A stretch of DNA of 58,498 nt, the filler included, from Dugesia japonica (Eukaryota), in the NCBI GenBank assembly GCA_001938525.1. It is 6 parts of 6 records of this genome, joined end to end, with 100 filler letters (N's around TTAATTAATTAA, not from the genome) between each part and the next. Parts side by side here need not be neighbours in the genome. Positions count along the whole stretch, not along the records: positions 9,559 to 18,434 come from MQRL01612045.1; 5 more parts are not named here. One strand, given 5' to 3'. Under the pieces are notes generated by a model. That model made no database searches and was not told the origin of the DNA. It saw nothing but the letters and a program-made list of their open reading frames with translations. Positions 6,031-56,780 of this stretch are shown here, one piece after another (position 1 is the first letter of the stretch; each line of letters opens with the position of its first letter). The position numbers and the translations under genes are program-made.

Positions 6031-6597
6031 TTTACAAATGTATTTGAAATTAAAAATACTAATTCATATTACCATAATTATAATAATTACAATTATAAAT
6101 GCATTGAACTTTTTCATAAAAACAAACTCATTAAGTATGAAACTTTTCCATATATAACTAATAAGTCTATATAAAAAACTTATCATTAAATATTTTCTAT
6201 GAATTTATAGTGTTTATGAGTGTTATGTTTNNNNNNNNNNNNNNNNNNNNNNNNNNNNNNATATATATATATATATATATATAATTTAAAATTTATGTAT
6301 AAATACCTTATAAGTAAATATTTTTATGATTGTAAAGGGTTTGTGAAGTTTATGAGTTTAAATTATTTACATAGTTAACTTATATTATTACATAGAAATA
6401 GTGTAATATAGTTTCGTCCGGCAAATACATGATCCCGTCATGTAAAATGCATGCTCGCGTCATGTTCATGACATATTTATAGAAAACTAAAAATAAATAT
6501 TTTTATTAATAATTTCAAATAATAAAAAATTTTCTTAATGACATTTTCTTACGTCAGCACTAGTACACTTGCATTTGTCTTGTCCGGGGGGTCTGGA

Positions 6598-6720
6598 TCT
6601 TCAATTTTTGTTCTTCAATTTTTGTTCTTCAATTTTTGTTCTTCAATTTTTGTTCTTCAATTTTTGTTCTTCAATTTTTGTTCTTCAATTTTTGTTCTTC
6701 AATTTTTGTTCTTAAATTTT
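6598..6720. repeat. 14-bp minisatellite (TCTTCAATTTTTGT) x ~8.5, with degenerate copies to ~6790
   Basis: Read directly from the sequence. Confidence 0.95.
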
Positions 6721-6909
6721 GTGTGGTTAAAATATTTTATTCTTCAATTTTTTGTGGTTCAAAATTTTTGTTATATATGTTCATTTTTATAATAAAAAAG
6801 TTATTTTGTTAATATTTATTGTTTTCTTTTGTATTAATTTTATCAAAATAAGCCAGTATTCAAATACATATATTTAAGCATATTAAAAAAATTATAATAA
6901 ATAATAAAG

Positions 6910-9458: not shown

Positions 9459-9558
9459 NNNNNNNNNNNNNNNNNNNNNNNNNNNNNNNNNNNNNNNNNN
9501 NNTTAATTAATTAANNNNNNNNNNNNNNNNNNNNNNNNNNNNNNNNNNNNNNNNNNNN
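9459..9558. other. Artificial contig spacer (44N-TTAATTAATTAA-44N)
   Basis: Exactly 100 nt; identical structure occurs five times; gives stops in all six frames. Confidence 0.97.
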
Positions 9559-9989
9559 AATTTCCATTGGTAGTTGGTCACTAAAAAATAAAGAATAATT
9601 TGCGAAATGATGTTAGATAAATGCAATCATAATAGATAGTTCAAATTAATGTTTATTTAACAACAACAGAATAGTAAAATCATGTTTAATGTTCCTGGGT
9701 GGGTTCTTCTAATGACAACAGATCAGCGAGATCAGCTCTCCTTGAGACTAGTGAATTTAAAGAGGTCAGCGCTTTTAAAACCATACACTTGCACGGCAGG
9801 TACTATAGTAATAATCAAAAACATGCGGTTAACTATAATACTAGTGAAATCATAATCACACCAATACACTGATGACCATTAGGAAAAACATTAATTGCTA
9901 AACATTTACAGCATTTCACGATAATAGTCCTCACTATTACCAGTAAAAGGGGTTAGAATAAAATTTCCTAACGATGTTCAGTGACTCAT

Positions 9990-10230
9990 ACAATTATTAT
10001 AACATCAGTAATCAATGTAGTTTTAGTGGTGACAATCGTAATATTCATTTTAATAATATCAATAATAATAGCCATTATAATAATAATAGTAGTGCATAAT
10101 AACAATATCAACGTTAACAATAACAATAACAATAATAATAATGAGAATAATAACAATAATTATNNNNNNNATTAATAACAATAATAATAATGATAATAAT
10201 ACAATAATATTAAGAATCATAATATTAATA
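9990..10230. repeat. Degenerate (AAT/AAC)n low-complexity tract
   Basis: Runs of AATAATAAC; produces spurious poly-N/poly-I ORFs. Confidence 0.85.
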
Positions 10231-12709
10231 GATATCATAACACAAAGGGTGATACTAAGGAAGATAGAAGAAGTGACAACATCGATGAGAGTAACCATAA
10301 GCAGTAATGTATGCTGATGATGACGCTACTCATGGTGTTAATGGTAATGATGATAACGAAAGTCACCACGGGAATGAATAAGGCTAGCTAGTATAGTAGT
10401 GGAGTAAATCTAACTACGATCCGAGTATCGTTAAGTAACTGAAAAATTAAAGGGGAATTTATATCAGGCATAAAATGAACCAATAAATCTTCATTTTAGG
10501 CTAATCACAATCTCATAATCAGGCAACTAATAATAATAATCGAGCATGTGAATTGTCTGTGTCGTATGACATCGACATCGCTCATAATAAGCAATCATGT
10601 TACTGAATGTTTTTTGGAATCGCTAGTTATTTCAGCACAGCGATATTACTGTGATGACAAACGTTGCCTGACCAACAATAGTCCTGACCATAATTGCTTC
10701 ACAACTAACTATCTGTCGAGCTGAAATCAATACCATATCTAACAATTTCGAAAATATTCTAACTATGCACACAAAAAGTACGAGCAAAAGATGTGTAATC
10801 GCAAAAAGATTTTACTTGTCGCCTATTTACATTAGATAATCATAACTCACTTTTTGCACATGAGGGGGAGAATACTTTTTGAAAGTTTTAAAATAAGTAA
10901 GAATACTATCATCAAAGTCACGAAACTTAATTTTGACTTCGAAAAAGTAAAAAAACATGGTCAAAAATCTTAAAGATGCTTAACCGACACCAATAAAAAA
11001 TTTTTTTTTTATAATTTTGATACAAATTTATTGATTCAAGTACTATTTGATGCAGAATATTTTGTAATTGTAAATTGTAATAAATTAATTGTATTTATAA
11101 AATAAATGCTCCAAAGTTTAATTCGTCATTAAGTTAAAGTTAGCAAATTAATTGTAAATGAAGCAATAAAATTATAATTAAATTCGAATTTCTCAAGTTA
11201 AATTATATTAAAAGCATACATTATTAATAATGTAAGTGTCTCACTTGGAGTTTATGTTTTAATTCTAGGACCGCGGGGTCGGTCACCCAGTGGAATCCAA
11301 CTAAAAATTTAATCTAGCGTCACAGGACTAAAAACCCTTAATTGGAGTGCTGGTCTGCATTTCTTTAGTTTCGGTCATATAAATTCCTTCTATTATTAGA
11401 ATTTGTAAAAAGATGAATATAATAAAACGATTGAAATGCTTATGTTTATTCAGAATCATTCAGACAGTTTATCTTATACTGGATGTTCGGATTTAATATA
11501 GAATGCTGTCGCATCATCTTGATCGTCCTAATAATTGATCGTTAGTGTGCTGTGCCTGTCGGTCAGATCCGCGATATATTGCGTTAAGAACGCTATTTTA
11601 CGGAATAGTCTATGTGTGGTGGAGTTGGCAATGGTCAATTGCTTCTCGATTTCGAGTTGCTTAATGATTTTCTTCTTTCGCTCTGAGCAATATATACTCG
11701 CGTTGCGTATGATTATGGCGTTCTACCCAAAGCCCGTGCAATATTCAGTGTATGTATGTATGTAGACTGTGTGGTGACCGATTTGTAGAAACTATAAATT
11801 AATAAGATGAACCAATGATACTAACAAAATTATACTTTTAGTTTAAACAAGAGAAAATACACGAGACGAGATATTTAACTTTCTTTACAGTGTAAGGAAT
11901 TAGTTCAGCGTTTAGTTTGCCTTGTCTTATCCATTAAAAATAGGTTCTAGGGGTATCCGTGCCGTCAATTTTAGAATATCTTTGACTAGTTGATTTTTTC
12001 GATCATACAATTGCTTTATCAGTGTGACGAACGAGTCCAGTTGAGCTTTCCAGAGCCGTTCTTATGCATTGGAGCACTCTGTTTCTTCCATATATTCCCA
12101 GCAGCCTTTTTTATAAAGCGGCTTTTTACTTTATGTGGCGCAACAAGATTCGTTTGAATCTTTTAGCATAATAACGTTTTAATAGAAGTCCGCGCAATAA
12201 CTTGTGACAGTGACGTAGTCTCCGTGGTAGTTGAATTCGAGACACTAAAAGGAACAAGATTAATTGTGTAACAGTGACAAGCTTTAATTATGCGAAAACA
12301 CGAATTAATAAATCAGCACAAAAAGGAAAGTTTTATTTATAAAATAAACCATCAATTCCGTGTTGGTGTTACTTTATCTAATAATAAGGGTTTTAACGGC
12401 ACTCGTTTCTGAAATTCTAACACGGCAGTAGGTAGAGAATAAGGACATGAAGCCTAGTTTTTTTAACCTTTTTATAATATTAAAAATGAAAATTTTCTAA
12501 TGTGCCATTTTCTANNNNNNNNNNNNNNNNNNNNNNNNNNNNNNNNNNNNNNNNNNNATTTTCTACAAAAAACTAGAATTGCGAAATTTTTCATTTTCTA
12601 TAAAAAAAATTCCTCTTAAAGAGGATACCCTCATTTTTTATCTTTTTTCATGGCTTTAAAAAAAGGCTTCAAAAATTTTATAAATATAATTAAAATTTAT
12701 ATTTAATAA

Positions 12710-15700
12710 ATGACAGCAATAATAATCAAATGTAACATTTGTAATAAAATATTTAAACGACAATCGGGTCTTGCAACCCATATAAAAAATTGTGGTAAAA
12801 GAAATTATAGATACAAGTGTGTAAGATGTAAGGATAGATTTTTAACACAAGCCGATCACGACCAACATGTAAACGCAAATGTTTGTGTGAATTTATATTG
12901 TTACATTTGTTAGAAAAAATTCCTAATCAAGAAAAAGCGAAAAAACATTATAATAAACCAATCCATCGAAAAATTGAAGAGGATTATACTTATGATTTAT
13001 TTCAAGAACTTCCTCATGAAATAATCGATAAAAAAAATAGAAGATTTTTTTTCTGGTCCTGAATATAAAGATTATAGTATTGAGTTATTAGATGATTCAG
13101 GAATTTCTTTAAAAAGATATGTTGATTCTCCTAATTTAAAAAGTAAAGAATTTTATTATCGAAAAAAGATTGAAAAAATTATTACTAAATTTTTTAATTT
13201 TGGAAAAAGAACTCATGTTGATATTGCAGTTGAGGCTAATTATACAAAAATTTCGGGAGGTGCTAAAAGCGAAAGAAATTATAGATCAAATTCAGATAAT
13301 AAAAAAATATCAGTAAAAGAAAACATTCCTGAGATTACAAAAGATTTAATAACAGATTTAAAAACACAAATTAATGGAGAAAAAACAGAAAGTATTTGGA
13401 CATTAGAATTTATAGTTTATCATAGAGTAAGACTTGGAATTTATAAATCATTAGCCGGGGAACATGTGAAAAATTACCATTTATTAAAAAAGGAATTATA
13501 AATATTGAAAACCATGATAATAAATGTTTTCTTTGGTCAGTTTTAGCACACAAGCATGAATTTGAACATCCAACACGAGTAAGTCAATATAAAAAACATA
13601 TAAACGAATTTGATTTAACAGGTGTAAATTTTCCACCAACAATTGATGATATAAAAAGATTTAAAAAAAATAATGGTTGGCAAGTTAATGTTTTTAAAAT
13701 TGAAGATAACAATAAAATTCCTGAATCTTTACACATTTCTCATTTTCTTTTTAAACCATCACGTAATGAAAAAAAATGTAATTTATTACTTTATAATAAT
13801 CATTATGTCCTTTGTAGAAATTTAAATACACTTGTTAGTTATCACGGAAGCGAAAAAAGTATGTGTTTAAATTGTATGAATGCTTATTCCTCGGAAAATA
13901 AAGTTTATAGACATCAAGAAGAGTGTGTTCATCACAAACCAGCAAAAACTAATTTTGAAAAAAAGAATTTCATGAATTTATAGATTATAATTTTATGATA
14001 AAAAATCCATTTGCAATTTATGTAGATTTTGAGGCATTCACCGACACTAAAGATAATAAACAAAAACCAATTGCACTTGGTATTTATTTTGTAAGTAATC
14101 AACAAGATTTAATAGAAACTTATTATATAAAATTCACAGGTAACAATGTGATAAATGATTTTTTAAAATATTTAGAAGATTTAAGTGAAAAAATTGAAGA
14201 GCTTCTTGAAACAAATTTTGTTGAAAAATATCCTAAAATTTTAAAAGATGAATGTTTTTACTGTAAGAAAACACTAGGCGAAAATACAGAAGAAGTTTAT
14301 AATTTTTTCAGTGGAGAATTTATTGGAGGAGCTCNNNNNNNNNNNNNNNNNNNNNNNNNNNNNNNNNNNNNNNNNNNNNNNNNNNNNNNNNNTTTTCATA
14401 ACGCATCTGGTTATGACAATCATTTATTTTTTCGAGAACTTATAGAAAAACATCAAGATCTAATAAAAGGAATTATACCACACACCGATGAAGAATATAT
14501 TTCATTTTTATTTAAAAAAATTCGATTTTTAGATTCTTACAGGATGTGTAGCCCAGGCACATCAGTAGAAAAAATGGGTGAAACCTTAAAAAAAACTGGT
14601 AAATTTTCTCATTTAAAATCCATTAATTTAAAACCAAAAAAAATTCCATTTCCTTATGAATATTTAAAAAGAAACAATGCGAAAGAAGTTGAGCTATTAT
14701 TAAAAGGTAATTTAATACCCACAAAGGAAGATTTCTACTCTACATTAAGACAGAAAAAAAATAACTTTTAAAGATTATAAAGAATTTTTAAAAGAGTTTT
14801 TAAAGGAAAAAATATGTGGGATCACATGAAACCTTATTTAAAACTTGATGTTTTAATTCTTGCAGATTTCATGGAAAATCTTCGTGAAATTTCTATGGAA
14901 TATTATGGGATTGATTCATGCTTTTGCTACTCAGCTCCAGGACTTTCTTGGGTAACAGGAATAAAATTTACAGGAGCCAAATTAAGATATCCTAAAAAAG
15001 AAAGTTATGAATATTGTTTAAAAAATCAATGAGCAAGTCGAGGCGGAGTTTCTGCAGTAACTGGCGAAAGACAAGTTTTTCCATATAATAAAAATATAAC
15101 AGAAAGGAAATTTACAAAAGCACAAAAAGAAGAAATTGAAAAATGTTTAGAGCGAAGAGAAGAAATTCCAGAGAAATTTTTCAAAGAAACATTTTTAAAA
15201 TATTTAGATCAAAATTCTTTATATGCAACTTGCATGATAAGACCTCTTCCAATGGGTGACTGCATAGAATGTGAAGATTTAAGATATGAAAAATCAACAC
15301 AAGAGTATAATTTCATGTATGAGGTGGATTTAGGATACTATAAATCCACCTCATACATGAAATTATACTCTTATACCTGAAATTCACGAGAAAACGAGGT
15401 ATTTTCCTTTTGGACCAGAGAGCTTAAATATTCAAAAAAATATGGAAGCACCCTATCAACGAAAATTTAATAAAAACATTCAAAAGATAATACAAAATTA
15501 GTACTTTCACAATTTAATAAACTTCATTATTATCTGAAAGGAAGTACATTAGATTTTCATTTTTCTCAAGGAATGAAGTTGAAAAAAATTGATTATAAAG
15601 CAAAAGTTCCAACATCTTCATGGTTAAGACCATATATTCTTTTTAACATTGAAAAGAGAAATAAAGCAAAAAGAAATGGAGATGATTTTGCATCTGATTT

Positions 15701-16438
15701 TTTCAAGTTATTAAATAATTCATTTTTTGGAAAAACTCTTGAAGATGTTTTTAAAAGACAGTCTATAATATTTGTTACAAATGATGAAGAATTTCAAAGA
15801 ACATCAGCAAAATTATCATTTAGATATTTTAAAATATTTTCAAGACATTTAGCAGCAATGCACATGCAGCAAACTAATATTAAATATAATAAATTTCCAA
15901 TGATTGGTTTTGCTATTTTAGAATATGCGAAAGAGATTATGTATAATTTTGTATATGTTCAAATGCAACCATTAATTAGAACAGAAAATTATAAAATTCA
16001 CTACACAGACACAGATTCCCTTTTCGTGGAAATAACCGGGCAAGAAAATTTAGACAAGTTGTCAACACTATTTGGTAGCGAACTCCTTCAAATGAAGGAT
16101 GAAATGTAAAATGGTGAAATTACACATGCAGATTTTATAAGAGCAAACTGTTATGCTTTTAATTATATAGTAAATCATTTAATTGACTATTACAACAAAA
16201 GGGCGCATCAAAAACTAACGATGTGCAAATGGTGGATTATGATAAAATTTTAGAAGAGGCGCAACAAGTGATTTCAGGAATAAATTATAGTTTAAAATCC
16301 GATAGGCATGAAATAGAATTAACTTCTCAAGCAAAAATAATAATGACTGCTTATGATNATAAAGTTTTAATAGAGGATAATGGTATAATAACTTGGCCAC
16401 ACGGAAATCAATTTTACTGTTTTAGATGTGAAGCATGA
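12710..16438 (+). pseudogene. polB: Protein-primed family B DNA polymerase with N-terminal zinc fingers and OTU-like region (frameshifted)
   Basis: CxxC..H fingers at 12710-12970. IINIENHDNKCFLWSVLA and LLLYNNHYV at 13490-13815. ExoI PFAIYVDFEA; ExoII FHNASGYD; RFLDSYR; FPYEY; ExoIII YLKLDVLILADF; SAPGLSW; RGGVS; motif A YLDQNSLY; motif B KLLNNSFFGK; motif C YTDTDS. Confidence 0.95.
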
Positions 16439-16476
16439 CACTTTAGATTACATTTATTATGGGATGTTTTAGATTG

Positions 16477-17089
16477 TTAACCTGTTAATTTATTTAATTT
16501 AAATTTCGGATTTTCAATTTTTGATTTTAAAATTATTTCGTGAACTTCCCGAATCATATTTTTACNNNNNNNNNNNNNNNNNNNNNNNNNNNNNNNNNNN
16601 NNNNNNNNNNNNNNNTGTAGTAATTTCCTCGTCAGTTAAAATATTATCATTCAAGGCCTTTTGTTGAAATAGAAAAAGTTTATATTTAACCGTCTCTAAT
16701 TTTACAATAACATTGCTGTACTTCTTTTTCTTCTTTTGAATTAAAGATGAATTTAATGCACCAGTAATTGGAATTGAAGATCCTATTCCAGTTATTATGT
16801 GAAGATCAATTGTAGTATTTCTTATTCCAATAGGAGTTGCAAAAATTACACCAACAATGGCCACGCCGATTCCAATTATAATTTGAGCAACTTTTATGCC
16901 GTCATCGGCGGCGGTCCATTTTGATTAATATTTTCGATTATGTTTTATTTTATCATTTATAAAGTAAAGGTCATTTTCGAAATCTTTAATTCTTAAGGAT
17001 GAGAGTTTTGATTATAAGTCTTCAAGTGTATAATTACTAATTTCTTGCTGATAATTTTTTAAATCTGGGTACAATGTTTCGTCTGCCAT
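16477..17089 (-). pseudogene. Polinton/adintovirus two-hydrophobic-segment membrane protein (two internal TAA stops)
   Basis: MADETLYPDLKNY...; hydrophobic hairpin QIIIGIGVAIVGVIFATPIG...IITGIGSSIPITGALNSSLI; KKKKKY; C-terminal KALNDNILTDEE. I recognise this pattern from Polinton accessory membrane proteins. Confidence 0.7.
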
Positions 17090-17106
17090 TTTTCATAGTA
17101 AAATTT

Positions 17107-18283
17107 TCATAGTTCATCGAATATTTTTTTTCTTTCTTCTTTTGGACAACAATGAAGAATAATAAGGTTGTTAATATAAAGATTCGGTGGTAAAATTAAA
17201 TGAAAATTTTTTATCGATATGCTCGCCATTAAATTTCTCGTAAAAGTATCTTCTCCCAAAGAAGGATATTCACGCCCGCTTCTACCATCCGTTAAATTTA
17301 AAGAGTTTATTTCTAATTTAAATTTCCCAGGTTTAAAAGTAAAATCTACAATCTCATCAGAACCGACAAAATTAAAAATAATACTAATTTTAGGTGTTTT
17401 CGTATATCCTGAAATAAAAATGCATATTGGACCGGTAGCGATTTTTAATGAAAGATAACGTCTTAAAGGACCTTGAAGAAAAAAATATAATATTTTTTCA
17501 TTAGAATATTTCCAAAAACCATTTATTATTACTTTTTCTAAACATCCGCGATCTGAGTGTTCTGTATAATAGGGAAATTTATTATTATCTTTAATGAAAA
17601 AAAAACATTTTAAAAAATATAAATCCAACGATGGAAATATCACACCAAAATAAATAATTATTAAGTAATTCTTTTATTTTTTCTAATGGCAGCAGAGATT
17701 TTGTTTTTTTATATATTTCTAAATTTTCATTAATTTTAATTTTATGTTTTTCACTAAGATGTGCTTTATCTTTTCAAATTCATCTAGTAAAGGAAATAAT
17801 GGATCATTTTGTTTTTTTATAATAGAAATTTCTTCACCACTAGTTTTTTTTTAAAAGTTCAATTTTGTTTTTTAAACCTTTAACATCGTTTTTTAATTCT
17901 GGATTAATTTGTTTTTTTAAATTTTCAACATCATCTTTTATTTGGAAGAAAAACTTGAAAATAAATTTTTTGAGAAATTTAAAATTTACTAGATTTTCTT
18001 CTTCTTTAGGGTCACTAACCAATTTAAATTTATCAATTTGATTTTTTAAAAATTTTAAATTTTCTTCATTATTAGATTTAAATTTATTTTTGAGAAATTT
18101 TAAATTGACTGCATCCAGGTCATCTTTAGGCTCGTCTAGAATTTTTAAGGATTGAATAGCATCACCAGTTTCATTTACAAATCTTTTTTCATTGGTAGAA
18201 TCTTGTATTCTTAGTTTACTAGAAATTATATTTAAGAGTTTGGTGTTATTCATCGTTTGTGGGCTTTCTCCAAATATATTCAT
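17107..18283 (-). pseudogene. Putative virion fibre/spike gene (shaft ORF 17840-18283 and beta-rich ORF 17107-17643, probably one frameshifted gene)
   Basis: MNIFG start; FVNETGD; two neck-like repeats EPKDDLDAVNLKFL and DPKEEENLVNFKFL followed by coiled coil. The ATG is separated from the protease stop by 4 nt. Confidence 0.55.
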
Positions 18284-18287
18284 TTAT

Positions 18288-18434
18288 TTAAGCAATAATA
18301 TCATCAAAAGATTTTTCTGGAAAACTATAAAGAAAATAAATACAAAGCACACCACAAATACTTGTTTCAAAAAGTTGAACCTGAATTACATTAAATTTTT
18401 CAACATGGTGATCAAGATCTTTATGAAATGGTTT
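18288..18434 (-). CDS. C-terminal part of adenain/Ulp1-like capsid maturation cysteine protease (5' end lost at contig break)
   Basis: Manual translation KPFHKDLDHHVENFNVIQVQLFETSICGVLCIYFLYSFPEKSFDDIIA* contains the Q-x5-6-CG-x2-C oxyanion/catalytic Cys motif. Confidence 0.85.
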   Translation of the reverse strand, partial: KPFHKDLDHHVEKFNVIQVQLFETSICGVLCIYFLYSFPEKSFDDIIA

Positions 18435-18534
18435 NNNNNNNNNNNNNNNNNNNNNNNNNNNNNNNNNNNNNNNNNNNNTTAATTAATTAANNNNNNNNNN
18501 NNNNNNNNNNNNNNNNNNNNNNNNNNNNNNNNNN
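18435..18534. other. Artificial contig spacer
   Basis: 44N-TTAATTAATTAA-44N. Confidence 0.97.
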
Positions 18535-21618: not shown

Positions 21619-22549
21619 CTCTTTNNNNNNNNNNNTTTTTTTCTGTATGACATACCAGTAACCCCAGCGTATTTTTATGCGATTTCGAGAAAATATCCAA
21701 GATTTTAGACAACATTTAATTGAAAGAAAATATCAAGTTATTATGTAAATGGACATTTAAATGTTTAGTTATATGTATAAATTAAGTTATTTAGGCAAAA
21801 TAACAACAATTAGTGAATTTTTAAAATTTTAAAATCCCTTATAGTATGATAGCTGAAGAAACAATATCTCAAATAAAATATGTTCCAGGATTCAATGTTT
21901 TATGTATTTTCCTTTTTTCTTCCTCTGTAAGCACACCACACAAGCTCTTTTTGATTCTTTCCACAACACATGCATTTTGCCATCCAGTCGTACTTCAGAA
22001 GAAGAATTAGATGGCCTGCTTTGAGGATCACGAAAATCTCCAACTAGTTGATTTACCAGAAGTTTTACCAATTTCAAGTGATTCAAAGGATTTTCATTAT
22101 TTTCTAATTTCATAGTTTTGTATATGATGTAAACGTTAATTGAACACAATTATATCCCCCAAAAGAAAAGTTTTCTCCAACATTTCAAAGATTTTCGAAG
22201 GAAGCAGTATGTGGATGCATATTGGTCTGAACGATCCCCTCCGCCGATAATTTTTGTGTAGCTCAGTACTACGACTGGTTTCTCTGTTACCAGTTTGACG
22301 TAACTTTTGATTACTCGGGAAACAGTTGACATCATAGCATTTCTGGAATTGCTGAGCATTGTTATTATTCTTTCGTCCTTCTAAATTGTGTACTAAATTT
22401 AACAACTTAAATGCGTTTGAATGGTAACAATTACAGTATAAAACCACAAATCGTGTTTAAATCTGATTTTACAAGTACGCAGAATTGTTTTAATATAAAC
22501 AATTAACATTTATATTATGGTGAATTAGTCGCCAACGGAGTGCAAAGGG
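21619..22549 (-). mobile_element. Internally deleted piggyBac (PGBD4-like), 931 bp
   Basis: TTAA|CTCTTT left end and AAAGGG|TTAT right end. Transposase C-terminus EKPVVVLSYTKIIGGGDRSDQY...RKSLKCWRKLFFW and Cys-rich tail RACVVC. Confidence 0.9.
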
Positions 22550-27437: not shown

Positions 27438-27537
27438 NNNNNNNNNNNNNNNNNNNNNNNNNNNNNNNNNNNNNNNNNNNNTTAATTAATTAANNNNNNN
27501 NNNNNNNNNNNNNNNNNNNNNNNNNNNNNNNNNNNNN
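27438..27537. other. Artificial contig spacer
   Basis: 44N-TTAATTAATTAA-44N. Confidence 0.97.
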
Positions 27538-30500
27538 TTTCCTTATACCATTTGGCTTTGACTTTGATTGTTAATTTACCTTGGTTTATTTCGTAATCTG
27601 ATCAACGTTTGAGGCAATGTTTCGTGTCATGTTCTGTTTATTGTGATTGTTCGCAGACTTTGTTTTAACGTTTTGTGCAACCTCTCTATCTTCTCGTAAC
27701 ATTGTGGGCTGTATTCACTAGTTATGCTCTTTTTAATGTCATATTTGTTGCACAGATTCTTGAGCAGTTGTGACTCGAATTGTGTACCCTGATCGGTTAA
27801 AGTTTTTGGTTGCTCGTTGCTTGCGAACCAATTTAATTCTATGTTTTTGCAAATATTTTAATGGTATAACTTCAAACCAGTTTGTTTTTCTGTCACTCAT
27901 TGTTAACAAATATTTATATCCGTCATTTGGTGGTAATGGTAAATTCCTTAATTTCTTGTCTCATTTTTGGTCAGATGTATTTATTATGAATCATCTCGTA
28001 TGTCAATTTGTTTCCAGGGTGTTGTTTGTTGTGAATCCGGGTTTTCTATTAACTTCTAGATTCTTTTAGTAGAAGGATTCTTATGTTTCCTTCGTTTTGC
28101 ATGTCGCACCAGACATTGTTTATTTTTGTTAGTTTTAGCGAGGATTTTGACGGCATTTTGTTTATTGTTTCAAATTGTTTTTGCCTGATTTCTTCAATAT
28201 TGAAACAGTTAGTAAATTCAATCAAATTGACTTCACTTTCAACTCTTGATAGTGTATCTGCTGCTACGTTTGATGCTCCGGCTATATAATTCATTTTGCA
28301 TTGAATTGTGAGATAAAATTCAATTGATGTATTTCCCTGAGAGAGGTAATTTCATATCTATTGCATGTACAAGAGGTTTGTGGTCTGTGTATATTTCGAA
28401 CATTCTTCCTTCTAACAAGTATAAGGAGTGATTTATTGCCTCTTGTATTGCGAGAAGTTTTCTGTCAAACATTGAGTAGCGTGTTTGTTGCTTTTTTATT
28501 TCTTGGAGAAGAATTCTAGTGGTAGTTTTCGGTTTTTATTCTCCTGAAATAATTTGGCTCCCATTGCAATTCTTGATCAATTCGTTGTTAGAATGTATTC
28601 TCTGTTTGAATCAGCGTATCCTTATAGTATTGCTTTGAATGGACTGTTAATAGCATTTTCAAAACCTTCAGTATATTCTTTTGTCCAACTTATTTTCACA
28701 TTTGATTTTGTTCAGGTCGATCAATGGAGCTAAACATTTAATGCATTTCGGGATATAAGAGTGGTAAAAGTTTACCATTCGCAAATATCTTCCAAATTCC
28801 CTTGTTGTTTTTGGCAGTTCATATTTCTTTATATTGCTTGTTTTGTTTTCTATTGGATTGATTCCAAAATGATTTAGTGTGTGTCCTAGAAAATCAATTT
28901 TTTGTTTGAGGAATTAATATTTTTTTTACGTTTAATTTTAAGTTATTGTTGCCTAGCGTTTTGCAAACTTACTAGAGTGGGAGCCATTTTATTTCAGGAT
29001 AATAAAAACGGAAAAAACAACTATTAAGTGTTGTTTCTTTGAGGGACTCGCAATTAAAATATCATCTAGCTTTTTTATTTTCTTTTAGGATCTGACCTAT
29101 GAATCTTTGAAAAGTAGACGCTGCATTTCTGAGTCCGAAAGGCATCATGTTGTACTTGAACATCTTTACTGGTGTGATGATAGGTGTTTTAGCTATGTCT
29201 TCTTTCCTGATTGAGATGTGATGATATGCGTTTTGCAAATCATTTATTGAAAAGACCGTAGCCACATTTACTCTGTTTATGATATCTTTGATAATTGGTA
29301 ATTGGTAATTGTCCGATGGCGTTATTTTGTTAAACATTCTGTAATCACCCCAGGCTCTCTATTCTCCGTTTCTTTCTGTTTGAAGATTAGTGTGAATGAC
29401 CAGTTTGATTTCGATCGTTTGACGATATTGTTTTTCTCCAAGTTTGAAAATATTGTTTCCGTAATTTCTGTTTTATAAGGATCGAGTTTCCTAACTTTCG
29501 GCTGAACTGTATCACAATTAGTTATGATAGCGTGCTCTGTTATGCACTAATAATTTCCTGTTATTTGTAATTCTTCGGTGATGTGCTTATATTTATTTAA
29601 TAAACTGTTTATTTCATCGGGATTATTTTGCTTCTATGGTTGTCTATTAGGGTAATGTTTACCACTCCAATATCAATTTTATTTTGCGCTCTTCTGTTGA
29701 ACTACGCAGTATTTGTTGTACTATCTTTGTTTTTGTTTTCAATGTATTTCCTATTGTCACAATTAACCTGCAATTCGTGGGATGTCAGGAAATCGGTTCC
29801 TATTATTGCCTTTTGGACTTCAGCAATTGTGAAGGTCCATTTGTAGGTTATGTTATTGACGGTGATTTCTATTTGGTTGTCTCCGAATGTTATGTTAATG
29901 TTTTGTTTGTTTTGGAGTTGTTTTTGAATATGAAGTGAGGGAGAAGTGAAATCACTGAGATAGTATCTATTAAAAATTCAGTATTGTTTGAATGCAATGT
30001 GAAAGTGTGATGGTTGTCACCGAATGTAGGTGCTATCACTAGTGACTTTTTTAGTTTCCTTTATTGGGATTTTATGAGCATGGCTTGATGCACTTGTATG
30101 CTTTGTTCCCAAATTTGTTATAGAAGTAGCATAAATCTGTTCTTCTGTTTTCATGGTTATTAAATAACGGTCGAGGGGTTTCGATTTCTTTAGTTGGATC
30201 TGTTTTGGGAGAATGCCTTTGAATGTGGTCTACTGTTGTAGTTCCTGTGCAAGATGTGTTCTCGTGGATGAGAATTCGTTATTTCGTTTAGTTCATCCCT
30301 GATTTTCTGGTTTTCAGTGAACAATTCTTTCATTTTGGACATCAAGGATTTCACTAACATTTCCATGTTATTGTTTTTTGAAGAGTTTTGTTCCACACTT
30401 TCGTTCTTGTGGTAATTATTATATTTCTTAGTACTGAAAATTGTAGGAAAAGTCTCTTCGTTAATTTTATCGACGATTTCCGCCAGTGTATTGAGATTAT

Positions 30501-32123
30501 AAGTATTGCTTGCTGCCAGGATTCTTCTTATTTCGGGGGTCATCGTTAGCATAAAAATTTCTTTAAGCAGCTCATTTGATCCGCGATTCGTGATATTTGG
30601 CTGCAGGTATTCGAGTTTTTGTTTTAACAGGCGTAGAAATTCGATGGGTTTATTAGTCCTTAGTATGGTATTGTTAAGGCAAGCTTCTAGCATTTGCCTC
30701 CTGTTTATTTTATTTTTATTTATTAATAGTGTCAAATGAGTTTTGAGAACTCGGATTATCAACATCAAAATTAACCTCTATAAAATTTATTTCAAAATAA
30801 AAACTATACACATAATTTGTTTTTTTCCAAACAAATTTAATAATTCATATTTAAAAACGGAAAATATTAAATTCTTAAATTTTATTAATATCTCATTTTA
30901 AAACACTAAAATAAACATATTCCATTCATTTAATTTAAAATTTATTATATTTAAAATATATTTATATTCTTAAATTTTATTAAAATCTAATTTTAAAACA
31001 CTAAAATAATAATATTTCATTCATTTAATTTATTCATTTATTTTATAAATTATTTTCCTGATACAAATTTAAATATACTTTTGATTTTAATAAATTACGT
31101 TTTAAAAATACAAAAAAATTTAAGTCTGTTTTTAAAAGAACTATTTTATAAATATGCTGCATAATGTTTTAAATCGTTCATCTTCTTTTGCGAGTGAACC
31201 GATTTAGTGTGAAATTTAATTTAGAACATTGCTAAGGAGTGCCAACAATGTGCGTGAGAACAATGTTTTGGATGATTTGGTTCCAGATAGTGTCAAGGTT
31301 AGCTTAACGAAATCCAGCCACTTTTGTGGAGTTCCATTTTCGTCGTTGAAGTAGTTAGGGATGCTTATTTTTCGATTTAAAACTAATTTAATGTTCAGCT
31401 CTTCATTTATTTTTGGATCGCTTTCGCCGTTAGATACATTCATTTCTTTGACTTCAAATTTTATATTTTTATTTCTTTCTTTATTCAAATTTCTTGTTGT
31501 TTTTATGTCTGCAAAGAAATTTAGTCAGATTTAGAATATGGCATACTGTGTTCAGCCAAAAGAGTTGTTGAACCTTTATTAACAATTCTAAATTGTCAAC
31601 GTTTGAAGAACAAATTTTTTATCTGTTTTCAATTTACAGGTTTTAGTTTAGGGGTTTATTTTTTCCTTTTGACACCAATTTGTAAAGTTTAGTCGAGCGC
31701 AATAAGCTGGTTGGGGCTTGATTAATTTCATTTCTATGAATGTCTTAACTTTTTTAAATTTGATGATTTTATTTATTTATTTTTGTTTAGGCTGTTGTAC
31801 TTGTGTGGAGAATTCTGTAGGGTCTAAGAGAGTCACCAGAAAATGTGTAGGGACACTTTTGGTGTATGTTGTGTTAGATAATTTATTTTACAAATCCTCC
31901 ACTCAAATAAAATAACTTAGATTAATAATAATAATAAAAATAAATTATATAGGCTAGAGTAAATATAGGGAATTAGAATAAATAAATACATTTCTAATTG
32001 TATAAAATAATTATTATTTAAATAAAGCTACCATAATAATATTTAAACAAACAAGTACGAACAAAGTTCGATCCAGTTAAACGACTAATAAAATAACTAA
32101 GCAAATAATTTTTCTATCATACA
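27538..32123 (-). mobile_element. Decayed Ty3/Gypsy LTR retrotransposon (5' LTR-PBS-gag-PR-RT-RNaseH-IN)
   Basis: Gag at 31488-30190 with CYFYNKFGNKAYKCIKPC knuckle (~30080-30135). Protease FLIDTISVISLLP. RT GDYR...DLQNAYHHI...MPFGLRNAASTFQR and LDDILIAS. RNase H YTDHKPL and NVAADTLSR. Integrase GYKYLLTMSDRKTNWFEVIPL and TDQGTQFES. Confidence 0.93.
31832..32123 (-). repeat. Putative 5' LTR (~31846-32123, TGTA...TACA) and primer-binding site TGGTGAC (31832-31838)
   Basis: TG...CA ends, AATAAA on the minus strand, and TGG a few nt past the LTR end. The second LTR is not in the contig. Confidence 0.55.
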
Positions 32124-32239: not shown

Positions 32240-34513
32240 TGATACAAAACCAATATTGTCAGATAAAAAAAACCATTTCTACAAGCTACGCAAGAAATGC
32301 TAATTCCGAAGCCTACATTTTTTGTGGTTCTTCAGATACTGAAGAAGATTGGATGCAAACCACTAAGTAATTTGACATATTTAATCAAATGAGGATTACT
32401 TTTGCATTTGATATGTTATTACGAGGCAATGCCAAGGAATTGTGACAAGAAACTAACACAAACGAGAATTTCAATTCAAATGAAAAGTGTAAAAATTGGT
32501 TTCGATTAACATGTATTAACGATAAATCTCTGGTTGACAAAATTACAGATCCATCATGAGTTAAACAAACCATTGATGAAAAACATCGGAATTTCGAAAT
32601 AAGAGTAAAAAAGCTTGTTCACGATATATTTGAAAGCAAAAGATCACNAGAAGAAATATCAAGAGTTTTTATTCTGAATGGTTTAAGAAGAGAGANACTT
32701 AAAGAATCCTTTGCACTCCAACCAGAATTAAATGACGAAAAACGCCGAGAATCGGCTGCAAACCTTGATAAATTTGTAGCGAAAAGTAATGTAAATGTTG
32801 TCAACGAAAGCTTTGCAAGTGCAGTTAAGAAATCAGCTATCAAACCAAAATTTAATAAAATGGGAAATGATTACATAGGACCATATTTTCACCACAAATA
32901 AAATACTCCAAAATATTCTAAAATTTCTAGAAAACCGACAAACGATTCAAGAATTGGTAATAATATACAACAATTAAAAGATATAAATAAAGAACAAAGA
33001 AGACAATTTCCAAAACATTCTCTGAAATATGTAACAACAAAAATTTATAATAGATGCCATGGTAAAAATAGGTGTGTAATATGCGGTAAAGAAGGTCAGG
33101 CTTTCAGAAATTGTGCATTATTATAAAGAGGACACAATAATCAAAGAATATTATGTAGAGCGAAACAAGAAAGGGAAGAATCCTTAAATAAATGTAACTC
33201 GTTAATTGATTTTGAACATGATGCAATAAATATCTTAGAAAATAATGAAAACAATGTGTCTATCTTGTCAGGGAGGTTGCATTAAAGAATTTTAAACAGA
33301 AAAATTGGGATATTGATAGGAGACCTGATGTTAAACTGATGTATCAAAAACAAAATGGTAGAAATTGGAGCAGTGTAAATTGTAATGGAATTAGTGTAGA
33401 GATCTTGTAGAAAGCTCAAGTTATGATAAGTTATGAAAGTATCATAAAAATTCAAAAAATCAAATTACCAAAGAGATAATTGAATATATTAAAGATCAAA
33501 GCTTCCAAGTTAGTAAAAATTTAAATAAAATTAAATAATTCAGAGATATTGATAAATTGGTGGAAGAAGATATATTGCTGTTTCTTGATAAAAATTTTAA
33601 GATGATTGTTTTAGCAGGTAAATCAGTGGTTGATTTAATAAATTACATTCATGAAGAAGTATGTCACTTGGGAACGAGAAAATGAACTGAATATATTCAA
33701 ACAACTTATTTTTAGCCTGATATGTTCAGAAAAATTGAACATGAGTTTTAAAAAATGCTTAATTGGCAATCAAAGGAAACATATACAGGCAAAACAAAAG
33801 AATTATTTTTAACTCGAACCGAATTTGGAGCATTAGAACAGATTTTCATTGATATAGCTTATTTTGATAAATCAAAGTTAAAAAAGAAATATATTTTAGT
33901 CATTATATATCAATACGGCAAACTTGTTAGCCTGCCAGCCATGGCAAAACAAGACAAAAAAGCTGTAGTTGAATCAATAAAAGAGAATTGGATATATAGA
34001 TTCGGCAAGCCCAAATCCATACTGACAGATAGAGGCAAGATATTCGAAGGAAAATTGATGCAAGGATTGACTCAGAAATTTGGAAGAATTTTCGTCTCCA
34101 TACCAACATCAATCAAACAAATTGGTAGAAAGAACGATCAGGACACTACGTGATATGATTGTCACTACAATAAAAAGGGGATGTGAAGACGTTAGTTTAG
34201 ATAAGCTATTACCTCGAATTCAATTTTCAATTATTGCAACCCAAAAAAAGGCAAATGGAGTATCACCGTTTGAAATAATTTATGGAAGAAAACTTAAGAT
34301 TCAGAGACCATTACTAAATGATAATACAAGCAGTGGAGAAGTTAGATAATTAGTTGATAAAAATTTGAAAAATGCTGCACTGAAATTAAATAAATATGAA
34401 TCAGATAAAAAATTACATCGGAATCTTGTTGAAGTGGAAGAAGTTCTAGTAAAGGTAGAACATCACAATTTAAAGAAAATGGATACATATATGAAGATCC
34501 TTTTGAAATAGTA
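32240..34513 (+). mobile_element. Decayed Ty3/Gypsy element: gag + integrase, RT/RNase H not recognisable (deleted)
   Basis: Knuckle CVICGKEGQAFRNC (~33073). IN zinc-binding IHEEVCHLG; EQIFIDIAYF; ILTDRGKIFEG; SSPYQHQSNKLVERTIRT; GVSPFEIIYG; GPY/F-like YEDPFEIV. Confidence 0.88.
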
Positions 34514-35764: not shown

Positions 35765-36120
35765 AATTTCATAAAATATAACTATCAAAAAACTTCAACT
35801 TTGTGATATTTTCATGATAAAATATAACTCTTAAAATATAACCAAAGAGTTGAATCCATAGATATTTACATGTTTTATTATGGAATATAATTAAAATTAC
35901 ACAAAGAGCGGAGTCCATGGGTAATTGCATGATAAAATAAATGAAATGTATATTCAAAATGACCAAAGAGTTTAGTCCATAGATATGCTTTATTATAGAA
36001 TATAATTAAATTATTCAAATGAGTGAAGTCTATGTGATATTTACATGAAAAAATATAACTATTAAAATATAACCAAAGAGCAAAGTCGTTGTGATATGTA
36101 CATGATAAAATATTCAAATT
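35765..36120. repeat. Degenerate tandem array, ~55-60-bp units (with ~115-bp higher-order period)
   Basis: Recurrent AATATAA...CAAAGAG....TCCATAGATAT...CATGATAAAAT. Confidence 0.8.
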
Positions 36121-36756
36121 AAAACATTTCTTTACAAGATGATAAGAAACATAGAACGTTTTTCATATAACCATATTACTAGTGACACTTTTCTTTAAAC
36201 ATCCTATTACTAGTTACAATATTCTAAAAATTAACATATTAATCATGCAATTTTTAATAGAAAACATATTAGCTGAGAACATTGCTGAGAACAATATGAT
36301 AAAAGCGTAGAACGTTTTTTCTTAAAAATCATAAATTCATGGAACCTTTCCATATATAACTAATAAGTCTATATAAAAAATTAAAAGAAAATCTTTTTAT
36401 GATTGTATAGGATTAATGAGTATAGGGTTTATGAGTATATTATTTACATAGTTACCTTGTATTATTTACATATTAACCATGTATTATAAAGGTTTATGAC
36501 TATATTATTTAATATAATATATAATTTACATAGTAACCTTGTATTATAAGGTTTATGAGTATATTATTTACATATTAACGATGTAATAAGAGGTCACCNT
36601 GCAANATGTATGTTCATAAAATTAATTATCGTACATTAATTTATTCAAAATATTGTATAACTTAGTATTTAAAAAACCCTTCTTAATTTATTAATTATAA
36701 AATAAAAATAAAAGAAAACAATAATCCAATAAAATATTTATTAATATAACATTTAT

Positions 36757-37266
36757 TAACACGACATTTTTTTAGCATATTCATCAGCCATCTTCAAAAT
36801 CATTTCTTTTAAGATTTCATAATGGTTCTTGTTTTCATTGAAAGTGTAATCCTATTGAAATTCTGTTGAAATATTGTTCATAACTTGAAACATGTATATT
36901 GCTTTTGTCAGCAATAAATGTTTAAAATATCCATTAATCATCAACAACATATATTTATGAAGAAATTCTGGAAATCTTTATGTAATTTCTCAAAAGCTAA
37001 TTCTAAAAAAACAATCAAATAAAATAACAATATAATAAACTCTTACCATAATAATTTTCATAATTTCTGCCATCAATTGCAGTATAACAACTATCATCAT
37101 CATCATCATGACATGTATCTTCCATCTTTTCATCTTCAATAGTTTTTTCTTCATTAATATTGATTTTTCCGTAATCATTGGCTTCCATTATATTTTCTAT
37201 TTCTTCATTTTCAAGTCCTTCTTCTCCTTGGACAGTGTTTTCAAAAAATATTTCACAAGTATTCAT
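36757..37266 (-). pseudogene. Small acidic accessory gene remnant with a probable 44-nt intron (37003-37046)
   Basis: ORF 37015-37266 is E/D-rich. G|GTAAGA donor and TTTTTAG acceptor join YY to ELAFEKLHKDFQ in frame; the downstream part is frameshifted. Confidence 0.35.
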
Positions 37267-37531
37267 TTTGTAAAAATTGAATTTATTTTAAAAACAAGTC
37301 CTATGTATATAAACCCGGTAACCAATCATAACTGTTAAAACAAATATTAACAAATCATATCAATTTTAGCAAACAACAACTAATCGGAATCGTTAAAATA
37401 AATATAAACGAATCATATCAATTATAGCAAATAATATCCAATAGGAACTCATAAATAACGAGTATGTGTGTATCATAGCAAGTATATAAACAGCAGGTTT
37501 TGTAAAATAAGTCACTTTTACAATTATTATA

Positions 37532-37844
37532 ATGAACCAAGTCGAAAGAGGAATTAAGCAAATTACTGATGCAATTACGATTGGATCCGTTGACGAAATG
37601 AATCAACTAGAAAGAGATTAAAAAATTGGCAGATGAAATTACCAGTGGATCCATTGATCACATTCAATTCCTAAGCAGGATCAACAATAGTCTATTGAGA
37701 AAACATGAATATGTTGAACTCATTGTACGATCAATATTCATGGACAAAATTAAGGAAGAATTGAAGATCCAAAAGAGAAATAAATTTATTGCTGTAACGT
37801 TATTGTCATCCATTGTGATATTTTATTTGTTTGGTTGTAATTAA
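37532..37844 (+). pseudogene. ~104-aa tail-anchored protein with a 22-aa tandem repeat and BH3-like motif (one frameshift at ~37615)
   Basis: TATATAAA at ~37483, ATG at 37532, AATAAA at ~37872. MNQVERGIKQITDAITIGSVDE / MNQLER(E)IKKLADEITSGSIDH ... KRNKFIAVTLLSSIVIFYLFGCN*. Confidence 0.55.
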
Positions 37845-38076
37845 TGTAATTATTATTATTTTTGTTGTTTAATAAATAGATTTGAATAATAATTTTGTTT
37901 CTTTCTTGTATTATTTATATAAAAAACTTATAAGTAAATAGTTTCTTTGAACTACAATTGGTTTATGAGTGTATTATTTACATAGTAACCGTGTATTATA
38001 GGGTTTATTTACATAGTAACCATGTAAAAATTAAATATATAATAACAAACTTAATAAATAGAGTACTTTTTTAGTA

Positions 38077-38363: not shown

Positions 38364-39300
38364 CTAAACCAATACCGTTCCATTTTCTTTAATCTGAATT
38401 TCATTTTCAAATACTCCATAAAAATATAACATAAGCCGATGTTGTTAAAGCTTTGGCAAACTTGATATCCAATCTCAAATTTCCTTGTTGAGGTAATTGA
38501 CTCTGATTTATATCGAAATCTGGAGCAAGAACAAATGCAAAGAAGGGATAATTATACTTAAAATCTTGAAGTGTTATTCCACAATTCATATTCTTATCGA
38601 AAAATCCTATATTTCTTACTATAGATTGCATATATGTTGTGGTATAATTATCGTCTGTAAAATCCTGAGTATATATTTCTCGATAATCACTGTTTTTTAT
38701 CAAGGAAACGGAAACAGGATCTTAACTTTTAAATGTTGAACTCGAGCTTTTATAACTACCATTATATTGTTCAACACTTTTAAATGTAACCAAAATAAAG
38801 CTAGGTAATCGATGATCACCAAAGATTTGTTCCTTATAAAACGATGAACTATCTTTACTAATTGCAAATGCAACGAGTTCTTTGGTTCTTATTGGATGAA
38901 CAGCATTTTGCTTTTTTAACCCCATTTAGTGAGCAACTAGTACTGAGGGTTCAATGCGTACACGTCTAATCATTAATTTGGCATCTAGTAATACATATTT
39001 AGGTTCATTAGCTGCAGATTCCAAACAAATCTTAGAAGATGATCGTTTCAATCGAATTTGAACATTGACACCCGGAATAAGGTATTTCGGATGATCCATG
39101 AAATCGAGTTGCAAAGAATCACATAGACAATTGTTTAGATTTTGCAATAGACCTTTTTTATCTGCTTCTGATCCATATCCCATTGCTGCAAGACATATAT
39201 TCTTACTATCGCCGTTATAGTTCAAAGTAATTCTCAGATTTGTTGATTTAATTTTCAAATTATTAACTGTTAATATTACAAAACAAGTCAAAAATTTCAA
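38364..39300 (-). pseudogene. Polinton major capsid protein (double jelly-roll, F54H12.2-like), C-terminal two-thirds
   Basis: LQLDFMDHPKYLIPGVNVQIRLKRS; DAKLMIRRVRIEPSVLVAH; RLPSFILVTFKSVEQYNGSYK; PFFAFVLAPD; GNLRLDIKFAKAL; frameshifted tail YGVFENEIQIKENGTVLV*. Confidence 0.88.
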
Positions 39301-39647
39301 AGAAAAGTTTGATCTTTCACTTTTATTAACCTAATTCTATGATCAATAGCTAGGTCGAATTATTTTTTTAGAAATAATTTATACAGGGCTGTTAGATAAT
39401 TTTAAAAATTTGCAAATATTTTAAAATTTAATGCAATGTTATTAGTTTAAATTTTTTAATGTAAATAATTAGTAAAAAATTTTAATCATGAAGATTTGTT
39501 GCTTTATTTTTTAAGTTACTGAAAATTCGAAGTTTTAGATTTCAAAAATATATTTTTAATAAATATGATAAAATTGTTTAAATTTATTATTTATTCAAAA
39601 ATATAAATTGGGAAAGGCAAGTTTTGAAAGAAGCGTTCAAAAAGAAA

Positions 39648-39747
39648 NNNNNNNNNNNNNNNNNNNNNNNNNNNNNNNNNNNNNNNNNNNNTTAATTAAT
39701 TAANNNNNNNNNNNNNNNNNNNNNNNNNNNNNNNNNNNNNNNNNNNN
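39648..39747. other. Artificial contig spacer
   Basis: 44N-TTAATTAATTAA-44N. Confidence 0.97.
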
Positions 39748-45670: not shown

Positions 45671-45772
45671 TTCGACNCACATACTAGTTTGGGTACACCC
45701 AATCTCGTTCGATATTGGAAGTTAAGTAGCTCTCGACTTCGTTAGTACTTCTAACGTGAGCAGTGTCGACTT
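45671..45772 (+). pseudogene. 5S rRNA pseudogene or 5S-derived SINE head (102 nt, deletion in 3' domain)
   Basis: CATACT...CACCCAATCTCGTTCGAT..TGGAAGTTAAG (box A)...GTTAGTACTT; terminal helix TCGAC/GTCGA; no oligo-T terminator follows. Confidence 0.85.
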
Positions 45773-48663: not shown

Positions 48664-48763
48664 NNNNNNNNNNNNNNNNNNNNNNNNNNNNNNNNNNNNN
48701 NNNNNNNTTAATTAATTAANNNNNNNNNNNNNNNNNNNNNNNNNNNNNNNNNNNNNNNNNNNN
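48664..48763. other. Artificial contig spacer
   Basis: 44N-TTAATTAATTAA-44N. Confidence 0.97.
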
Positions 48764-52988: not shown

Positions 52989-54790
<1,802 letters not shown>

Positions 54791-55735: not shown

Positions 55736-56780
55736 TTAAGGTAGTCGGAAAGTCTTTAGACTATTTATTAGTAACTTTATTTTGGTCAATTATATAGTTT
55801 CATTAATAAATTTTTAACGTTTAACTGGTTTAAAAAATTTTAAAATGGTCGATTTGATCTTGATGACCAACCACGTACNGGACGTCCGTTATCGATTGAT
55901 CCCGAAGTTATACATCAAGCTGCAGAAACCAAACCCATTATAAGTCAAGATGACTTTCAGGAGAACTCAATTTGCCCAAAACAACGGTCCATGATCATTT
56001 GCATAGGCTGAAAAAAGTCAACAAAAGATGTAGGGAAATTCATCATGAACTAACCTATAAACAACAAAAAAGAAGGATCGAAATTTGTCAAAAACCTCTT
56101 ACAAAACCCATGTGATGAACGGTTTTTTAAACGAATCATCACTTGCGATGAAATATTGATTTATTTTAGCAACTATAACAGGCAAAATCAGTGACTCGAT
56201 CCAAATCATCAAGCTCTTGCTGTACTATGAAAAGAAAGGTTCTTCTCATCGTATGGTAGAATTACGAGGGAATAGTCTATTTCGAGCTTCTTCCAAGCGG
56301 ACAAACCAATAATGCTGAACTCAATTCCATGCAATTAGAACATGTACATGAAGCTTTGAGTTCCTGTTATCATTCCTTAGTCAATCGTAGATGCGTTATT
56401 CTTCAACAGGATAATCCCAAACCGCATACTTCGAAGGTAACGCACCAAAAGATTGAAGAGCTACAGTATGATCTTCTACCTCATCCAGCCTACGGTCCAG
56501 ACTTAGCGTCTTCAGATTACCACTTTTTCAGGTCAATGACACATTCTCTACGGGGACGCTTCTTTGCTTCAGTGGACGAGGTAGAAAATGCCTGCCGAGA
56601 ATTTTTCGATTTCAAAGAAAGTGCATGGTACGCCAGAAGAATCTATCTGCTTGCAGAAATATGGCAGAAGACTATTGAGCATAATGGTCTGTATTTTAAA
56701 GAATAAAATTTTGTTTAATGTATTTTATTAAGTTTTTATATTTTGTTTTAATTAGTCTAAAGACTTTCCGACCACCCTAA
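55736..56780 (+). mobile_element. mariner (DD34D) element, 1045 bp, TA TSD, 5' part of transposase deleted
   Basis: 28-bp TIRs TTA(A/G)GGT(A/G)GTCGGAAAGTCTTTAGACTA with TA on both sides. RIITCDE; QQDNPKPH...HPAYGPDLASSD with 34 residues between the two Asp. Confidence 0.96.

Follow-up and report, generated by a model that had tools for sequence, protein, structure and literature searches.

What kind of element left a DNA polymerase gene facing a compact block of opposite-strand genes in the flatworm Dugesia japonica, and in what state is it? The locus lies at positions 12710-18434 of a 58,498-nt stretch of joined sequence from assembly GCA_001938525.1; this whole stretch is called the window here. 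In our reading, what the contig (9559-18434, MQRL01612045.1) very probably carries is a single arm of a Polinton (polintovirus) that had integrated and has since died by mutation; it belongs to a divergent branch, with a polymerase of the Beta-adintovirus / group-1 type. The Polinton fragment is the right-hand part of this contig, which is closed by an artificial linker of 100 nt (18435-18534, no strand).

The main evidence is a gene for a protein-primed family B polymerase (pPolB) at 12710-16438 on the plus strand, with all exonuclease and polymerase motifs. Eight motif blocks were examined, and all could be aligned with relatives (including ExoI-III, YLDQNSLY, YEVDL, KLLNNSFFGK and YTDTDS), which bears out the complete motif set reported in the first-pass annotation. 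A 211-aa piece of the gene matched 63 proteins among 710 candidates from a search of 5.8 billion proteins (best E 1e-35, 44% identity), and the relative P0001 found the window in tblastn at E 7e-119. The searches for relatives were run outside the viral and metagenome contig collections, where closer complete relatives could lie. The two closest polymerases come from short contigs of 5-6 kb. Using a profile built from 12 of the 63 relatives, eight stop-to-stop pieces aligned in gene order (13025-13501, 13447-13983, 13959-14771, 14781-15032, 15033-15380, 15361-15498, 15474-16109 and 16187-16438). Their E-values ranged from 7e-54 to 5e-5, except for the first piece, which reached E 0.21 only. 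The C-terminal piece (16187-16438) matched profile positions 1147-1213 of 1221 at E 6.5e-7. Motifs and homology thus support the Polinton/adintovirus identity that had been proposed.

About seven frame changes (two of them, at the start, placed without firm homology) and four in-frame stops interrupt the reading of the gene, so the description of the copy as dead also stands; it now encodes nothing functional. Inside pPolB, at a frame change, two perfectly matching 32-bp arms form an inverted repeat around an 8-nt loop (15301-15372, no strand). It is the sole perfect short-loop inverted repeat longer than 14 bp in the window, and its DNA fold (-35 kcal/mol, z -13.3) was not equalled in any of 200 shuffles. 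The repeat is either a fold-back/template-switch lesion or a library chimera.

The domains of the polymerase follow one another along the plus strand. The inferred gene start (12710-12913) encodes N-terminal C2H2-type zinc fingers: two by pattern, with a Pfam zf-C2H2 match at E 1.6e-5 (25.5 bits against a cutoff of 25.2). At least one finger was present in the first 90 aa of 10 of the 12 profile relatives. The region at 13447-13983 (profile E 6e-41) is a probable vOTU-like protease region, in which a Cys and a His that are invariant in all 12 relatives are both kept. The OTU label comes partly from a motif that we take to be typical of such domains, beside the published layout cited below; the domain had no match in domain libraries or the PDB. 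The stretch 13959-16109, broken by stops and frame changes, holds the exonuclease, a zinc-ribbon insert resembling endonuclease VII (an N run covers part of it) and the polymerase palm. Relatives carry PF02945 (endonuclease VII), and the window matched the NCBIfam DNA polymerase II family at E 2e-5 across motif C. The available part of PMC11161782 gives the domain order of pPolB as terminal protein (TP), vOTU, exonuclease (Exo) and polymerase (Pol). From this order the weak, positionally correct match at 13025-13501 (E 0.21) is labelled a probable terminal-protein (D1) region. As far as can be judged from sequence, the N-terminal part of the window pPolB fits the TP-vOTU-Exo-Pol layout, with domains that are named by no library.

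Which polymerase group is present bears on the name 'Polinton A' that had been given to the element. In the part of Starrett et al. 2021 (PMC8502044) that is available, the Alpha adintovirus PolB is the pfam03175 archetype, and the Beta PolB is divergent and binned with Polinton group 1. The best window piece scored E 0.024 with PF03175, under the cutoff. Among the relatives, P0002 (1e-11) and P0012 (1e-17) matched this family; the nearest two, P0001 and P0003, did not. When the PDB was searched with a profile of the pPolB relatives, phi29 polymerase was not among the matches at E≤1. Hence, the archetypal pfam03175 polymerase of Alpha adintoviruses and group 2 was not found, and divergence from that archetype, the mark of Beta and group 1, was found indirectly, without a labelled reference. 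Because the PF03175 score was only E 0.024, the two nearest relatives did not score and several relatives carry endonuclease VII, the pPolB looks like the divergent Beta-adintovirus / group-1 type and not Alpha, as judged without labelled reference sequences. If the A stood for Alpha, the name does not seem to fit. FastTree trees were built from 27 of the 63 relatives (≥700 aa) and then from 8 of these plus L001, a 12.7-kb element (JANOGQ010000345.1) whose polymerase falls in the same class (profile E 8e-303). The window pPolB joined P0001 and P0003 with support 100, under a long-branch warning, and it is about 35% identical over the core to the nearest protein found.

The minus-strand block converges on pPolB and consists of a protease tail, a repeat-rich open reading frame (ORF) and a hydrophobic-hairpin ORF. 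Its tight packing, described earlier as gaps of 4-17 nt, was measured: the protease stop at 18288-18290 is separated by 4 nt from the next ATG at 18283, and the ORF end at 17107 by 17 nt from the membrane ORF ATG at 17089. The order protease, fibre-like gene, membrane gene held in part. The membrane ORF is real, with 43 relatives; the protease is a 48-aa tail recognized by motif, and the fibre is unconfirmed by homology.

The protease tail (18288-18434, minus strand) comprises the final 48 codons of a putative adenain / vUlp1-type cysteine protease and is cut by the linker. Its Q..CG..C..F motif has no second copy in the window, and 1 of 100 shuffled sequences produced it. The tail aligned at the catalytic Cys region with the adenain of L001, with a weak pairwise E of 0.025; the L001 protein itself is assigned to PF00770 at E 1e-7.

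The fibre-like ORF (17840-18283, minus strand) contains two P-x-x-x-D/N-A/L-V-N-x-K-F-L repeats (D6 and D8) and short coiled-coil repeats. Both window occurrences of the motif lie in this ORF, and at least one occurrence arose in 3 of 100 shuffles. We take the P-x-x-x-D/N-A/L-V-N motif to be associated with fibre-like viral proteins. Atlas leads (unnamed viral clusters at 0.88, T4 gp36 at 0.80) all stayed below 0.9, and nothing significant came from Pfam, PHROGs, NCBIfam or phage tblastn. Beside it lies a beta-rich ORF (17107-17673, minus strand), which may be a gene of its own or may supply a head domain to the fibre-like one. Its structure matches were low (best Foldseek E 0.015, best VIA Z 5.0, atlas 0.84). 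The single-sequence AlphaFold model (pLDDT 47.7) is too poor to interpret, and for this reason we make no claim of a fold, whether known or new. We infer that 18283-17107 is one gene read across frame changes; two genes are possible.

The membrane ORF (16616-17089, minus strand, ATG at 17089) encodes a putative SLATT-like hydrophobic-hairpin protein with a Kyte-Doolittle (KD) peak of 2.26; it has two in-frame stops, and its 3' end is under an N run. Its 43 relatives were found at E≤0.001 among 1.84 billion representatives (best 4e-24, 45% identical), and 38 were aligned, five short ones being left out. SLATT_1 was matched by 13 and SLATT_4 by 8 of these 38 (E≤0.2, best 1.1e-4). Hydrophobic segments (KD≥1.6) numbered two in 8 relatives and one in 30. 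The family profile had no meaningful match in the PDB, the relative P0130 had none among phages, and a word-index search with the unbroken 103-aa piece returned nothing from 32 candidates. GasderminX was considered as the identity of this ORF and rejected: the GG-type (pX) motif near the C-terminus was present in 1 of 38 relatives. A comparison with the pX-like ORF of L001 (itself a tentative label) gave a probability of 1.2%. Since relatives match SLATT_1 and SLATT_4 and only one carries the pX-type GG motif, the sequence points to a SLATT-like two-helix hairpin protein rather than GasderminX. The SLATT match may be a generic hydrophobic hairpin signal. SLATT and Fiber are labels on published adintovirus maps, and SLATT also occurs in MELD viruses (PMC8502044, part available). 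In the excerpt of PMC12220804, SLATT genes are widespread in cryptophyte Polinton-like viruses (PLVs), and a pore for endosomal escape is hypothesised only.

That fibre and membrane genes mark a virus over a bare transposon, as had been argued, does not follow here. The fibre call is weak, and the function of the SLATT-like accessory is only predicted. Capsid genes are intact or split in >80% of 72 Polintons (PMC4028283, as excerpted); virus-like character is therefore the norm.

Core genes had been expected beyond the contig break. The contig is indeed truncated and without them, but the break is an artificial linker, and the DNA that follows is probably not the genomic neighbour of the Polinton fragment; past the 18435 linker it had no match to the polymerase, membrane or capsid family profiles. 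The terminal signature sought was (AG)3 or (AGT)2 terminal inverted repeat (TIR) ends with a 6-bp target duplication. AGTAGT occurred twice and AGAGAG not at all in 9559-12710; no terminus was identified, and only one arm is present. No TIRs or Polinton DNA common to different contigs of the window were found. The L001 ATPase and putative penton had no match in the window at E≤0.05, and the L001 integrase had no Polinton counterpart there; rve matches in the window fall on other contigs, within retroelement surroundings.

Another contig holds a major capsid gene of the double-jelly-roll kind (38364-39330, minus strand), which is broken and cut short at its 5' end. It lacks approximately the first 80 residues, has two stops and one frame change, and shares 70% identity with P0066 across 98% of the query. 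Its family (A1) has 63 relatives with 33-76% identity, on short contigs. By sequence, the family had no PDB match, and DJR-like Pfam matches were found in 2 of 55 members only. A P0066 model (55 of the 63 relatives aligned, pLDDT 87) matched iridovirus, PBCV-1 and Sputnik capsids at E 4e-16, and also a Cotesia bracovirus protein and adomavirus LO7. The capsid identity is thus settled by comparison of the predicted fold alone. No protease motif was found after the capsid fossil, so the capsid and the Polinton fragment may come from different families. Downstream of it, at 35799-37998, are clusters of 44-57 nt dispersed repeats (families D7, D9 and D17), perhaps the sub-terminal repeats of some mobile element.

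When GTDB genomes were scanned with the capsid family, 44 pattern matches yielded two loci. L001 (1-12666) and L002 (1-4976) are eukaryotic Polinton contigs inside bacterial metagenome-assembled genome records, probably by binning contamination. L001 carries an A32-type ATPase, an rve-chromo integrase, an A1-family capsid and adenain; a TBP-like gene (PF00352) is also present. Its gene content shows that the window polymerase class accompanies a full Polinton gene set, not that this copy had one.

Several observations weigh against a Polinton of the proposed type. No integrase, ATPase, penton, TIR or target-site duplication is linked to this copy, whose contig ends at 18434. The protease is a fragment without the His/Asp region, and its 48 aa had no match in Pfam, PHROG, NCBIfam or the PDB. 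The window membrane ORF itself matches no Pfam or NCBIfam family, and its relatives match other hairpin families too (LeoBC in 11 of 38, MAG1210 in 5 of 38). None of the rows in the trees is labelled as Alpha, Beta, plasmid or adenovirus, and all that the trees show is that P0001 and P0003 are closest. On L001, neither a SLATT-like nor a fibre-like gene was detected; its gene order differs, and its polymerase falls in another subclade.

Three other explanations were weighed. The source copy could be less decayed than it appears, with many of the breaks being sequencing or assembly errors. Unusually long A/T runs do occur in three of the seven frame-change zones (background fraction 0.01-0.09), and the arms of the 32-bp fold-back match perfectly, like library chimeras. 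However, the other four zones are unremarkable, in-frame stops also interrupt pPolB, the membrane gene (two) and the capsid gene (two), and the other transposon relics of the window are equally fragmented; we consider this explanation improbable. It is still less probable that the fragment is an integrase-less Polinton-like or MELD virus with a fibre and SLATT entry kit, as in protist PLVs, whether passively captured by the host genome or brought into the assembly by a contaminant or symbiont. The many stops and frame changes imply a long stay in the host genome, the GC content of 0.26 equals that of the window, the contig runs on into microsatellite-bearing DNA, and the polymerase class is found with an integrase on L001. 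These points oppose the absence of a visible integrase, the 5-6 kb contigs of the two nearest polymerases, and the accounts of SLATT and fibre genes as typical of cryptophyte PLVs (PMC12220804, excerpt) and of integrase-less MELD viruses in Hydra and spider data (PMC8502044, excerpt).

An inserted linear plasmid polymerase of mitochondrial or cytoplasmic type, beside unrelated ORFs, is very improbable. Mitochondrial plasmid pPolBs are without the vOTU domain in the available part of PMC11161782, whereas the window has this region with Cys and His; an adenain-type tail adjoins. P0002 had no match among 72,556 bacterial plasmids and endonuclease VII matches only among 50,697 phage records. In favour of a plasmid stands the former binning of Beta-type PolBs with mitochondrial plasmid polymerases (PMC8502044, in part); the trees contain no mitochondrial or cytoplasmic plasmid sequences.

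Under the preferred reading of a dead Polinton arm, family knowledge suggests how the intact ancestor would have lived. Replication of its linear genome would have been protein-primed: the terminal-protein domain would have served as the primer, to be released by the vOTU domain. Integration would have occurred via an RVE integrase with a 6-bp duplication. Double-jelly-roll particles would have been filled by an FtsK-type ATPase and matured by the protease. More speculatively, and with the chances about balanced in each case, the repeat ORF may have been an attachment fibre, and the SLATT-like hairpin may have breached a membrane at entry or exit, as proposed for Polinton-like virus SLATT genes.

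The window as a whole contains five identical artificial linkers of 100 nt (N44, TTAATTAATTAA, N44) at 9459-9558, 18435-18534, 27438-27537, 39648-39747 and 48664-48763, with stop codons in all six frames. Three of the four complete pieces between linkers measure 8.88-8.92 kb, which suggests concatenated unplaced contigs; the window is a chain of probably unlinked contigs and not one locus. The remainder is AT-rich (GC 0.26), with microsatellites and retroelement or DDE-transposase relics. Fragmented long terminal repeat (LTR) retroelement relics with RVT_1 and rve matches lie at 27654-30777 (minus), 32560-34349 (plus) and 40344-42663 (plus); from gene order, we read them as Gypsy type. A mariner-type transposase fragment lies at 56260-56706 (plus). 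The ORFs at 122-712, 21892-22456, 51600-51881 and 54103-54387 are presumably hAT or piggyBac relics, which they resemble by motif without Pfam support. The sole Rfam match, barely over the gathering score, is a 5S rRNA at 45671-45771 (plus), probably a pseudogene. A tandem array with a 14-nt unit (about 10 copies) lies at 6570-6751. Upstream of pPolB, 11200-12500 is non-coding with raised GC (mostly 0.30-0.41) and undepleted CpG, possibly an element terminus or an unrelated insertion.

Among known systems, the fragment shares with Beta adintoviruses / group-1 Polintons (Polintoviricetes, PMC8502044 as excerpted) a divergent pPolB that matches PF03175 poorly and has a probable OTU-like region at its N-terminus, a putative adenain-type protease, tight ORF packing and a degraded germline copy. 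It differs in its SLATT-like membrane gene; GasderminX/Cupiennin is not on the window contig and could lie past the break. No flatworm example is among the map entries listed in that excerpt. The L001 Polinton is alike in its polymerase class with endonuclease VII insert, its capsid family (37% identical to the window fossil) and its adenain. Its polymerase is only 25-30% identical, and its pPolB points away from the other genes, in contrast to the window, where it points towards them. Cryptophyte PLVs have fibre-type and SLATT-type accessory genes, hypothesised there for attachment and endosomal escape (PMC12220804, excerpt). However, their hosts are protists. In the window, the polymerase and the putative protease have the character of animal Polintons, and neither accessory label is strong.

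The lineage had been called poorly described. Flatworm Polintons, the same element class, have in fact been counted and studied (PMC8532177, PMC10748475, each as excerpted). Supplementary Table 2 of PMC10748475, in the part available, lists 748 integrase-linked pPolB1 genes in 8 of 73 Platyhelminthes genomes, all of group 2, whereas the window gene is group-1-like. Planarian (Schmidtea) Polintons are described as piRNA targets (PMC8532177, PMC10558129, excerpts), and Orthopolintovirales insertions are noted in Rhabditophora (10.1101/2025.04.19.649669, excerpt). No published account of this branch, or of a flatworm Polinton of group 1 that carries this gene block, came up in the literature searched (Repbase, subscription journals and bioRxiv supplements lay outside the search).

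The fragment is a divergent addition to a well-known element class and reveals no biology of a new kind. Its present importance is small, since dead remains of Polintons are common in animal genomes; 96% of vertebrate Maverick loci are degraded fossils (PMC8097293, excerpt). What it offers is a marker for a divergent branch of group 1, and a further case of an animal Polinton in which a SLATT-like gene is packed next to protease and fibre-like genes. Intact expressed copies, if they exist, would matter because animal Maverick particles were unobserved as of 2021, according to the abstract of the same paper. We see a small chance that an undescribed deep Beta-type branch (with P0001 and P0003) exists in an AT-rich invertebrate, in which a PLV-style fibre and SLATT pore kit replaces GasderminX/Cupiennin and intact copies elsewhere still form particles. 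If this were true, it would provide a tractable animal in which to seek natural Polinton virions.

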